64,000 bases of DNA from Promethearchaeota archaeon (GTDB lineage: Archaea > Asgardarchaeota > Lokiarchaeia > Sigyniarchaeales > SOKP01), in assembly GCA_013375475.1 (NCBI GenBank), contig JABXKD010000001.1, positions 64,001-128,000 of the forward strand. The letters are read 5' to 3'. Position numbers and translations under genes: made by a program. Below are positions 636 through 1,199 of this stretch, piece by piece (positions within the stretch are counted from its first letter, which is position 1; every line of letters starts with the position of its first letter). The notes below the pieces were generated by a model. That model worked only from the letters and a program-made list of their open reading frames with translations. It had not been told where the DNA came from and did not search any database.

Positions 636-1199
636 TTAATATTCAATGCCAAAACGAGCTTTAATACCCTTTGAGGAATAATAGTGTTTTATCATTCTCA
701 TTTCAGTGAGCAAATCTGCTCGTTCCTTTATTTTTGGATGCATCTTAGGTCCTCCAGTGATAATTAGTTCGACTTTTTCTGGCTTATTGTCTATTAGTTT
801 TAATACATCGTCGATGTTTACAATCCCGTACTCAACTGCTACGCCAATTTCATCAAGAATTACTATATCATATTCGTCATTCATAATGATTTCCTCCGCG
901 AACTCCATGCCTTTCCTTCCTTCTTCGAAATCAATTTCTCCAGCAGTAGCTATTAAGTCTGACGTGCCAAACTGTTTCAAATAAAAGTTGGGCGTGTTCT
1001 CTATCGCCTTAACTTCACCATATTGAGGATATCCTTTCATGAATTGAATCATAAATACTTTAAATCCGTGTCCCGTGGCTCGAAAACCTTGTCCTAAGGC
1101 TGCTGTGGTCTTGCCTATAAGCACTACTATCATTTATATAGTAATTTTGCCCCGACCAAAATAGACTTGCACAAGTCCTTGTTCTAACCTTTTTCTCAT
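636..1199 (-). CDS. cobO: Cob(I)yrinic acid a,c-diamide adenosyltransferase (CobO/BtuR), interrupted by a 30-nt insert
   Basis: ATG at 1199 after GAGGT gives MRKRLEQGLVQVYFGRGK, then the insert, then GKTTAALG...IQFMKG...ILDEI...ELIITG...ADLLTEM...KHYY...GIEY. These are CobO motifs; 177 aa after removing the insert. Confidence 0.9.
1117..1146 (-). other. Candidate bulge-helix-bulge (BHB) intron in cobO mRNA
   Basis: GGGC-AAA-[AUUACUAU AUAAAUG AUAGUAGU]-GCUU-AUA: 4-bp helix, two 3-nt bulges and an 8-bp intron stem; contains an in-frame TAA. Confidence 0.75.

Follow-up and report, generated by a model that had tools for sequence, protein, structure and literature searches.

The stretch of DNA analyzed here (the window, 64,000 nucleotides) carries on its minus strand a cobO gene whose reading frame is closed by a stop codon in the middle of the P-loop. 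Is this gene broken, or is the interruption taken out of its RNA? The initial annotation had favored the second answer and described a BHB-type, that is tRNA-type, intron inside a protein-coding gene. On comparative evidence, a spliced intron is by far the best reading of the locus. Positions 1146-1117 very likely form an archaeal BHB intron of the relaxed HBh'/bulge-helix-loop type within the cobO coding region, and a spliced RNA would be expected from it.

The interrupted cobO gene and its relatives

Two open reading frames in a shared frame make up the locus. The first runs from an ATG at 1199 to a TAA at 1136-1134 and encodes 21 amino acids with the C-terminus GRGK-ITI-stop, and the second starts at 1133, extends to 636 and encodes 165 amino acids that begin MIVVLI-GKTTAALG. 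When the stop codon was read as X, the translation across the break matched the PF02572 (CobA_CobO_BtuR) profile over its full length (positions 1-172 of 172, E 1.3e-49), and NCBIfam cobA/PRK05986 also matched it. The insert measures exactly 30 nt (10 codons; 1146-1117, minus strand) and lies, with its in-frame TAA, between GRGK and GKTT, so that the split P-loop described in the initial annotation is confirmed by the two frames and by the profile match. Without these 30 nt the product has 18 + 159 = 177 amino acids, and only then is the GxGKGKT Walker-A loop contiguous, as it is in 23 intronless orthologues. The predicted outcome of excision, a GKGKT loop in a 177-residue CobO, thus agrees with the orthologues, in which GRGKGKTT has the same length. 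The gene is the only one in the genome that matches PF02572. Its neighbors are DUF169 and CoA-transferase-like genes, there is no cobalamin operon, and the context is uninformative. The parts of the gene are as follows, the end of exon 1 being set by the BHB cut rule together with the intronless orthologues.

1147-1199, minus strand: cobO exon 1, from its ATG at 1199 to the second base of the codon for the GRGK lysine
1117-1146, minus strand: putative BHB (HBh'-type) intron of 30 nt, with TAA at 1136-1134; the site is precisely empty in insert-free relatives
636-1116, minus strand: cobO exon 2, whose first base is the Lys wobble A, followed by GKTTAALG...; stop codon at 638-636

Aligning cobO of relatives, as the initial annotation had suggested, revealed presence and absence at one exact site as well as covariation in the helices described below. 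The insert occupies the identical position in 13 of 36 congeneric loci and is precisely absent from the other 23. Among wider relatives, in a set that overlaps the genus set, 17 of 80 cobO loci on genome contigs carry it (15 found by script and two identical ones by eye) and 63 do not. These relatives belong to the Promethearchaeota/Promethearchaeia, which confirms the annotation's placement of the host among the Asgard archaea. The inserts are 29, 30 or 33 nt long, 29 nt being the length in seven species of the genus, and most forms are therefore frame-breaking. After removal of the insert, all 34 coding sequences in the tree are open.

Fold and cut sites of the insert

Every pairing that had been claimed for the central helix, the bulges and the 8-bp inner stem is present. 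The elements of the fold are listed here, all on the minus strand.

1149-1152, minus strand: central helix H, 4 bp, 5' strand (exon 1), pairing with 1119-1122
1119-1122, minus strand: central helix H, 3' strand (final paired intron bases), pairing with 1149-1152
1146-1148, minus strand: 5' bulge of 3 nt, predicted cut 1147/1146
1116-1118, minus strand: 3' cut site, formed by the first three bases of the 8-nt loop, predicted cut 1117/1116
1138-1145, minus strand: inner helix h', 8 bp, 5' strand, pairing with 1123-1130
1123-1130, minus strand: inner helix h', 3' strand, pairing with 1138-1145
1131-1137, minus strand: hairpin loop of 7 nt (inserts of 29 nt have a 6-nt loop, that of 33 nt a 10-nt loop)
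1154-1158, minus strand: weak outer exon-exon helix, 5' strand, pairing with 1106-1110

The motif has the 4-bp central helix (1152-1149 with 1122-1119; two G-C and two G-U pairs) and the 3-nt 5' bulge closed by h' that characterize archaeal BHB structures. In the strict hBHBh' form the 3' bulge is also closed directly by an outer helix h. At cobO no pair can form between the nucleotide that follows the 3' bulge and the one that precedes the central helix, and an internal loop (1 x 8) consequently surrounds the 3' site. The only outer helix at this intron (1158-1154 with 1110-1106) is paired in 83.8% of cells in alignment A2 and shows zero compensatory changes there, for which reason it is probably not a selected feature. 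The initial caveat of an imperfect outer stem was thus justified, the 3' cut site being in an 8-nt loop and not in a closed 3-nt bulge, and the intron belongs to the relaxed HBh'/BHL class, as set out in the accessible text of PMC5829648, outside the strict class.

The single-sequence fold is unexceptional (MFE -14.6 kcal/mol, z +0.59; a fold as good or better in 145 of 200 shuffles), and RNAalifold favors a 3-bp mini-hairpin at the 3' end of the intron over the central helix. Our judgement that the motif exceeds chance is accordingly drawn from comparative data and not from folding energy. The central helix is paired in 100% of cells in alignment A1 and in 98.5% in A2. For the inner helix h' the figure is 95.6%, and five of its eight pairs are altered on both sides (A2). 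Over the whole motif, 93.4% of cells in A2 are paired, compared with 30-55% after the partners are shifted by 1-3 columns. The count of five pairs changed on both sides was equalled in 1 of 500 shuffles and the covariation score in 0 of 500, in a control that ignores phylogeny and treats relatives that are non-independent samples. The alignments also bear on where the RNA would be cut. The third base of the 3' bulge, which supplies the wobble base of the Lys codon AAR, is A or G in every one of the 18 sequences aligned in A2 (17 distinct). In two relatives (L157 and L165) the corresponding base of the 5' bulge is a U, which as part of the exon would give Asn; these two are compatible only with cleavage after the second base. 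Cleavage after the second nucleotide of each bulge, as originally proposed, is therefore well supported by the purine rule on the 3' side and the tolerated U on the 5' side.

The exons beside the insert show a related pattern. An Arg codon NGG and a Lys codon AAA precede the site in all 13 intron-bearing genes of the genus, whereas they occur in 6 and 4, respectively, of the 23 intronless genes. The synonymous sites of the exon next to the cobO intron thus fit the motif.

Other probable introns, splicing enzymes and competing readings

The initial annotation had also suggested scanning the genome for other genes split with BHB geometry, and this yielded two more introns of about 30 nt, so that cobO is not a lone case. 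In the genome-wide scan for a BHB combined with open reading frames (4/4 central pairs, at least 5 inner pairs, L 20-120), 580 candidates were obtained, among which cobO ranked 12th by energy. We judged 73 candidates with L 17-45 by eye and added a paralogue test, and the convincing ones were cobO, aIF2-gamma and an EF-2 paralogue only. The other 31 paralogue-spanning candidates were rejected because they had gaps or because no similarity extended beyond the junction on its upstream side. Two looser scans that scored codon usage (1560 and 1324 candidates) proved too noisy; the score did not set the known introns apart from the rest, and the paralogue test, applied to the 1324 candidates, recovered aIF2-gamma and the EF-2 paralogue alone. 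Internal stops in the same genome occurred in 0 of 73 Ras, 0 of 49 ABC_tran and 2 of 27 GTP_EFTU matches, and its cbf5 has no internal stop. A covariance model of the cobO intron (R1) matched only itself in its own genome (E 2e-23; next best E >= 3.2), which indicates that this intron is not a repeated element, and an Rfam search of 1000-1300 gave no matches at E <= 1. The census is a lower bound, blind to single-copy genes that have no paralogues.

In the single-copy aIF2-gamma gene, a 30-nt insert with TAG lies between GHVDHG and KTT of the P-loop. The same site holds 29 nt in 10 relatives and nothing in 25; 93.5% of the cells of this intron are paired, with 100% for its central helix. The EF-2 paralogue carries a 30-nt insert with TAA, found in 4 of the 34 genus rows that cover the site, and its junction is gapless when compared with two intronless homologues; a partial intronless copy, 88% identical, is located on another contig. 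The rule of cutting after the second bulge base gives gapless junctions in both genes. The genome therefore holds at least three introns of about 30 nt and of one build, all of them with a patchy record of gain or loss across the genus. Their appearance is that of selfish or neutral inserts that the host tolerates, not of regulators, and the suggestion that the cobO intron is a regulatory switch is unsupported, sister species having no intron and there being no sign of regulation.

The genome encodes two EndA paralogues as well as RtcB. The alpha-like EndA has the residues Tyr/His/Lys. Its closest counterpart in the PDB is the alpha chain of 3p1z/3ajv, and in the alignment its lysine corresponds to K44 in the numbering given in the accessible text of PMC5829648. 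The beta-like EndA has Ser where the catalytic paralogue has His. From the likeness to the Aeropyrum enzyme, the host EndA may have a broad specificity and be able to cut relaxed motifs. Aragorn flagged 22 of the 44 tRNA predictions in this genome as of the intron-containing type.

Together, the same-site presence and absence, the frame-breaking lengths, the covariation, the purine rule, the purifying selection and the RNA contig described below and the genes for EndA and RtcB uphold the annotation's reading of a BHB-type intron inside the cobO coding region. The alternative that fares best, although we regard it as very unlikely, is that the insert is kept in the mRNA and the ribosome hops over it. 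Ribosome hopping occurs at phage T4 gene 60 and at mitochondrial "byp" elements. The inserts described here have the general appearance of such sites, in that they are short (29-33 nt), form hairpins and contain stop codons in otherwise intact genes, and the cobO insert is even flanked on both sides by a GGC codon. However, a hop from GGC to GGC would lose GK and leave a cobO P-loop that falls two residues short of the loop in all intronless orthologues, and neither aIF2-gamma nor the EF-2 paralogue offers a matched pair of take-off and landing codons. Bypass also leaves unexplained the 4-bp helix between exon 1 and intron, the 3-nt spacing and the purine rule at the 3' site. A 151-nt contig from an RNA library (X6 record 22, depth about 3) likewise speaks against a retained insert, matching 971-1116 with its last five letters unmatched and so ending exactly at the predicted 3' splice site, in a kind of library that can hold DNA. 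The run itself has zero cover over 1137-1203 and the interior of the intron, and hence it can display neither the spliced nor the unspliced form of cobO. A read or contig across the exon-exon junction was not found, nor was a circular intron.

More improbable still is that the insert is an inactivating lesion and that the lineages with it have a dead cobO. Such a decaying gene would account for the in-frame stop or frameshift in the P-loop, and gene callers would split or drop the gene. However, the median dN/dS is 0.066 for intron-bearing cobO (57 of 66 pairs with computable dS) and 0.068 for intronless cobO (83 of 171 pairs), dS between carriers reaches more than 2, and no second lesion was found in cobO of any of the 13 carriers in the genus. 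Compensatory changes preserve the helices of the insert, and the gene is the sole member of its family in the genome. Moreover, an insert of the same kind sits in single-copy aIF2-gamma, which is an essential gene.

The remaining explanations deserve almost no credence. The assembly consists of 288 contigs with 6.41% contamination, and the intronless copy of part of the EF-2 paralogue on a separate contig might suggest an assembly or binning artefact, a strain-private lesion or an element excised from DNA. The initial annotation had itself raised the first of these and the strain-private lesion; however, the insert is present in many independent assemblies, and DNA contigs from two other samples (X2 record 4 and X3 record 14) span it with 0 differences. 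Hardly any chance is left, either, to read-through into a 10-residue P-loop insertion or to a gene for a 21-aa peptide and a 165-aa protein, since, although all three inserts of this genome are 30 nt long and in frame and the second cobO frame opens with ATG, the 29-nt forms (seven cobO genes in the genus and ten aIF2-gamma genes) rule out in-frame translation, the stop varies by species (TAA or TAG), and the second frame is devoid of the first half of the Walker-A loop.

A model for splicing and its known counterparts

Returning to the spliced intron, we propose the following mechanism. In the pre-mRNA, the final four bases of exon 1 before the bulge would pair with the final four paired bases of the intron, and the 8-bp intron hairpin would stack on this central helix, leaving the 3-nt bulge at the 5' site. 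An EndA of the heterotetramer type, with a catalytic alpha subunit that bears the specificity-loop lysine and a beta subunit devoid of the His, would then cut after the second nucleotide at both sites. RtcB would ligate the exons and probably circularise the intron, and ligation would rebuild the Walker-A Lys codon to give the 177-aa ATP:corrinoid adenosyltransferase.

Very probably, then, Asgard archaea splice a few mRNAs that gene finders misread as broken genes. We consider it likely that members of the Loki lineage possess a small, dynamic set of mini-introns of about 30 nt in protein-coding genes, those for CobO, aIF2-gamma and an EF-2 paralogue among them, and that EndA cuts these introns while RtcB joins the exons. 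On this view the introns lie in active-site codons, are repeatedly gained and lost among species of a single genus and place constraints on synonymous sites in the exons beside them. If true, this would be the first example of mRNA splicing as a routine process in the prokaryotes most closely related to eukaryotes. Provided that the introns are spliced as proposed, mRNA splicing by the tRNA machinery would be no crenarchaeal oddity and would extend to the lineage nearest to eukaryotes and to an essential gene, and exon codons would be under selection for RNA structure. Annotations of Asgard genomes would miscall such genes as broken or split and bias pseudogene counts. The introns would also offer a directly testable system, with defined junctions, circles of 29-33 nt and recombinant EndA, and comparative material on how introns spread and are precisely lost without a spliceosome.

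In the accessible portions of the literature, the archaeal mRNAs described as substrates of the splicing endonuclease are cbf5 of Crenarchaeota and the HVO_1309 5' UTR of Haloferax only. Our literature search returned no BHB introns in Asgard protein genes, and the supplements of a 2026 preprint on tRNA introns might mention some. The closest counterpart is the intron in the cbf5 pre-mRNA of Crenarchaeota (Watanabe 2002; Yokobori 2009, PMC2738675). According to the available text of PMC2738675, it resembles the cobO intron in its BHB-like "unconventional" or relaxed motif within the coding region, in a cut between the second and third bulge residues, in a host with hetero-oligomeric EndA and in a scattered pattern of gain and loss across relatives, with alleles that lack the intron precisely. 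Both fall within a codon for a catalytic residue, which is Asp in cbf5 and the P-loop Lys in cobO. The two differ in the gene, in the lineage (Crenarchaeota as against the Asgard Loki lineage) and in number, with one gene per genome as against at least three here. Splicing of cbf5 was demonstrated by cDNA, as stated in the available part of PMC2738675, whereas that of cobO, aIF2-gamma and the EF-2 paralogue is deduced. The HVO_1309 intron of Haloferax volcanii, which the accessible sections of PMC7714728 and PMC10485636 describe as cleaved in vivo and in vitro, is a case, as proposed for cobO, of the archaeal splicing endonuclease acting on an mRNA and not on tRNA or rRNA. It lies, however, in the 5' UTR, where no reading frame is interrupted, and in a host with EndA of the homodimeric type.

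The non-canonical tRNA introns (HBh', hBH, BHL) of TACK and Asgard archaea offer the nearest match in structure. As far as the accessible text of PMC5829648 and of the preprint (bioRxiv 10.64898/2026.10.13.758758) indicates, Asgard genomes are rich in such introns, which were gained repeatedly, and these share with cobO the motif grammar and a presumed (alpha-beta)2 EndA with the L1/CSL loop lysine. Unlike them, the cobO intron has as its host RNA an mRNA without a tRNA body. Outside the archaea, XBP1/HAC1 is a regulated stress switch in which Ire1 cuts a cytoplasmic mRNA and a tRNA ligase (RtcB in animals) joins the exons. It depends on Ire1 instead of EndA/TSEN and is regulated, whereas cobO shows no sign of regulation. 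What it has in common with the splicing proposed for cobO is a very short mRNA intron, a structure-specific endonuclease, a tRNA ligase and a reading frame that is altered when the exons are joined.

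Anatomy of the interrupted cobO gene

The ATP:corrinoid adenosyltransferase gene cobO (1199-636, minus strand) is the sole PF02572 gene of the genome (3.92 Mb, 288 contigs), and an in-frame stop divides it into two open reading frames. The read-through product matched the whole Pfam CobA_CobO_BtuR profile (positions 1-172 of 172, E 1.3e-49) as well as NCBIfam cobA, with ten surplus codons in the Walker-A loop, placed precisely between GRGK and GKTT. The initial annotation had proposed this 30-nt insert (1146-1117) as a candidate spliced bulge-helix-bulge (BHB) intron, and the pairings that it named, a 4-bp helix, two 3-nt stretches and an 8-bp stem, were all found in the sequence.

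Elements of the cobO locus
1199 (ATG) to 1136-1134 (TAA), minus strand: ORF 1, ending at the in-frame stop
1133 to 636, minus strand: ORF 2, in the same frame as ORF 1
1152-1149 with 1122-1119, minus strand: central helix, 4 bp, pairing present
1148-1146 and 1118-1116, minus strand: 3-nt stretches at the cut sites
1145-1138 with 1130-1123, minus strand: inner hairpin, 8 bp with a 7-nt loop, pairing present
1158-1154 with 1110-1106, minus strand: the only outer helix

On each strand the elements follow in the order outer helix, central helix, bulge and inner helix. The caveat that the outer stem is imperfect was justified, as there is a single outer helix and the 3' site lies within an 8-nt loop, not a closed bulge. 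Single-sequence folding of the site was unremarkable (z +0.59; 145 of 200 shuffles folded equally well). The neighbors of cobO encode a DUF169 protein and a CoA-transferase-like protein (1366-2133 and 2953-3711, both plus strand), which places it outside any cobalamin operon.

DNA contigs from two further sequencing runs of other samples, X2 (record 4, 1029-1229) and X3 (record 14, 1021-1908), spanned the insert without difference; thus, it is present in DNA and is no assembly artifact. A contig of a related organism in X2 stops matching at about 1067 and continues with letters resembling exon 2 and then a different intron 3' end, possibly another variant of the intron from this sediment. One RNA library, X6, contained part of cobO as a 151-nt contig of depth about 3, which matched 971-1116 with one difference and whose last 5 letters were unmatched beyond 1116. 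This position is the predicted first base of exon 2, and the match end is what spliced or 3'-cleaved RNA would give, although it is suggestive only.

Conservation, structure and selection among relatives

We found cobO at E <= 1e-40 in 35 of 42 genus genomes and read 36 loci (35 genes and one partial copy). The insert occurred at exactly this site in 13 loci (four of 30 nt as in the window, two of 30 nt with another hairpin, and seven of 29 nt), and GxGKGKTT was uninterrupted in the other 23. In an overlapping set of one-genome-per-species contigs, 17 of 80 cobO loci carried an insert, 15 recognized by script and two identical ones (loci L157 and L165) by eye, and 63 had none; six of the 17 carriers were more distant species, with forms of 29, 30 and 33 nt. 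The 29-nt forms shift the reading frame, which excludes both stop read-through and translation of the insert.

With the insert removed, all 34 coding sequences used for a tree were open (the truncated genes of genomes G003 and G055 were omitted). All 13 carriers fell on one side of a branch, among nine intronless genes; across the branch, all 12 genes were intronless. The intron label required six changes, at least four of them forced by well-supported branches, which is the pattern expected from a single early gain followed by repeated precise losses, or from several gains. Median dN/dS in the spliced frame was 0.066 for carrier pairs (dS computable in 57 of 66), 0.068 for intronless pairs (83 of 171) and 0.063 between the two groups (119 of 228); these near-equal values show that purifying selection acts alike on the interrupted and the intronless genes.

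Covariation was also seen, as compensatory pairs. Paired cells amounted to 97.4% in a 13-sequence alignment and 93.4% in an 18-sequence alignment, compared with 29-59% and 30-55%, respectively, when the partners were slid. In the latter alignment, both-sided changes occurred in five of the eight inner-helix pairs, 14 both-side-changed cells were observed against 3.7 expected, and none of 500 shuffles reached the covariation score. The central helix, which varied by G-C/G-U exchanges only, was paired in 100% and 98.5% of cells of the two alignments, and RNAalifold favored a 3-bp mini-hairpin over it. Since the outer helix was weakly paired (83.8% of cells) and did not covary, the supported motif consists of central helix, bulge and inner helix, the relaxed HBh'/BHL class. 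In the available text of one study, cleavage of this class is confined to (alpha-beta)2 and epsilon2 endonucleases with a specificity loop (PMC5829648).

For cbf5 introns, the rule stated in the accessible part of the source is a cut after the second bulge base (PMC2738675), and the position predicted from sequence for cobO agrees with it. Such a cut makes the third base of the 3' stretch a Lys wobble position, which must be a purine, and leaves that of the 5' stretch intronic and free to vary. At the former position most sequences have A, and L140 and L162 have G; at the latter, L157 and L165 have U, which, if it were exonic, would replace the invariant Lys by Asn. Both predictions thus hold across the sequences compared. 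Among related genes, Arg NGG preceded the site in 13 of 13 genus carriers versus 6 of 23 intronless genes, and Lys AAA in 13 of 13 versus 4 of 23; synonymous exon sites appear to fit the demands of the motif.

Splicing enzymes and further candidate mini-introns

The host is an Asgard archaeon of the Loki lineage, in line with the Asgard origin that the initial annotation took as probable. The genome encodes the RNA ligase RtcB and two paralogs of the tRNA-splicing endonuclease EndA. Paralog 1 (200 aa) retains Tyr, His and Lys, most closely resembles the catalytic subunit in structures of the Aeropyrum heterotetramer (3p1z_B and 3ajv_B, E 1.8e-35) and has a Lys aligned to K44 of the specificity loop (numbering after PMC5829648); paralog 2 (202 aa) has Ser in place of the catalytic His of the M. 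jannaschii enzyme. According to a 2026 preprint, 44 of 60 Asgard genomes have two EndA paralogs, and tRNA introns are very numerous (bioRxiv 10.64898/2026.10.13.758758). In this genome, aragorn flagged 22 of 44 tRNA predictions as intron-bearing, some with implausibly long introns of 359-1623 nt that are probably artifacts.

The whole genome was scanned, as the initial annotation had also suggested, for sites with a 4-bp helix, a bulge of 3 nt and at least 5 bp of inner helix at which excision would link two open frames that are closed otherwise; 580 candidates resulted, with cobO ranking 12th by energy. Homology picked out two further putative introns, both in GTPase genes.

Further candidate introns of the window's genome
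Contig C33, gene at 673-2256, minus strand: aIF2-gamma, 30 nt with TAG, between GHVDHG and KTT, inside the P-loop Lys codon
Contig C244, gene at 1-2250 of its locus (L172), plus strand: EF-2 paralog, 30 nt with TAA, between MTDSD and EEEQARGITI

The aIF2-gamma gene (locus L054, in whose coordinates it is listed) is single-copy, is fused to an N-terminal HhH domain and exceeds the NCBIfam equivalog cut-offs. Among 37 genus loci read, 10 others had a 29-nt insert, 25 had none and one was truncated by a contig end; the insert of G003 forms a quite different 8-bp hairpin. Across 11 sequences, 93.5% of cells were paired (central helix 100%), with both-sided change in two pairs. The EF-2 paralog scored 605.8 bits on aEF-2, under the cut-off of 738, and its BHB-rule junction was gapless against both the genome's EF-2 and an 88%-identical intronless partial copy. 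That copy lies at a contig end (C109:3-680, minus strand) and may stem from another strain or from the bin's 6.41% contamination. The intron was present in 4 of 34 genus rows covering the site, the others being G023, G046 and G015. Species distribution differed among the three introns: for example, the aIF2-gamma intron occurs in G014 and G048 without that of cobO, and the cobO intron in G016 and G020 without that of aIF2-gamma.

The open frame of the EF-2 paralog upstream of the P-loop lacks ATG, GTG and TTG (C244, about 55,600-55,640), and the cobO ATG (1197-1199) reads ATT in the orthologs L005, L006 and L008 (G002, G008 and G012); these genes may use non-canonical start codons or leaderless starts. 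The canonical EF-2 of the congener G051 (C89:1235-3355, minus strand) has one TAG inside its match, for which a further intron, a lesion or recoding could account. One scan candidate (C282, plus strand, about 8,550-8,580) was rejected as an intron; its in-frame TGA stands at a Cys of a CxxCxxCxxxCP iron-sulfur motif and looks like a selenocysteine codon.

Mini-introns are rare in this genome. Stops fell inside 2 of 27 GTP_EFTU matches, these being the two introns, and inside none of 73 Ras or 49 ABC matches; cbf5 had no internal stop, relaxed scans gained no further intron, and the cobO intron model found no second copy in its own genome. Since single-copy genes were judged by eye only, the census is a lower bound.

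Relatives, structure and selection together support the initial reading of the cobO insert as a spliced BHB intron, which we consider highly probable from these comparisons. A ribosomal hop over the insert is very improbable, because it needs matching take-off and landing codons, which are absent in both GTPase genes, and the only such pair in cobO would remove two conserved residues. That cobO is a pseudogene is less probable still, given the dN/dS values, the lack of second lesions and a like insert in single-copy aIF2-gamma. Stop read-through or a two-polypeptide gene is scarcely credible in view of the 29-nt forms, and the same is true of an assembly or binning artifact, a strain-private lesion or a DNA-level excision element in view of the many assemblies and samples. 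The proposed regulatory switch found no support, the intron being absent in sister species and no conditional structure being seen. On the simplest view, the spliced intron would be tolerated and survive because a broad-specificity endonuclease removes it.

Relation to known archaeal mRNA introns

The mRNA substrates of the archaeal endonuclease described in the accessible parts of three papers are cbf5 of Crenarchaeota and the HVO_1309 5' UTR of Haloferax (PMC2738675, PMC7714728, PMC10485636), and a 2023 review, in the part available, states that further ones are probably still to be found. The literature searched, subscription papers and supplements aside, contained no account of such introns in protein genes of Asgard archaea, and the word mRNA is absent from the main text of the Asgard tRNA-intron preprint (bioRxiv 10.64898/2026.10.13.758758). 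The cbf5 intron, as presented in the accessible text, is a relaxed BHB in a catalytic Asp codon, gained and lost among relatives and shown by cDNA (PMC2738675). The kind is thus already known, and the novelty lies in the genes, the phylum, the count per genome, the size of 29-33 nt and a host gene that is essential. Compared with cbf5 and HVO_1309, the predicted splicing described here would affect other genes in another phylum, with several introns per genome.
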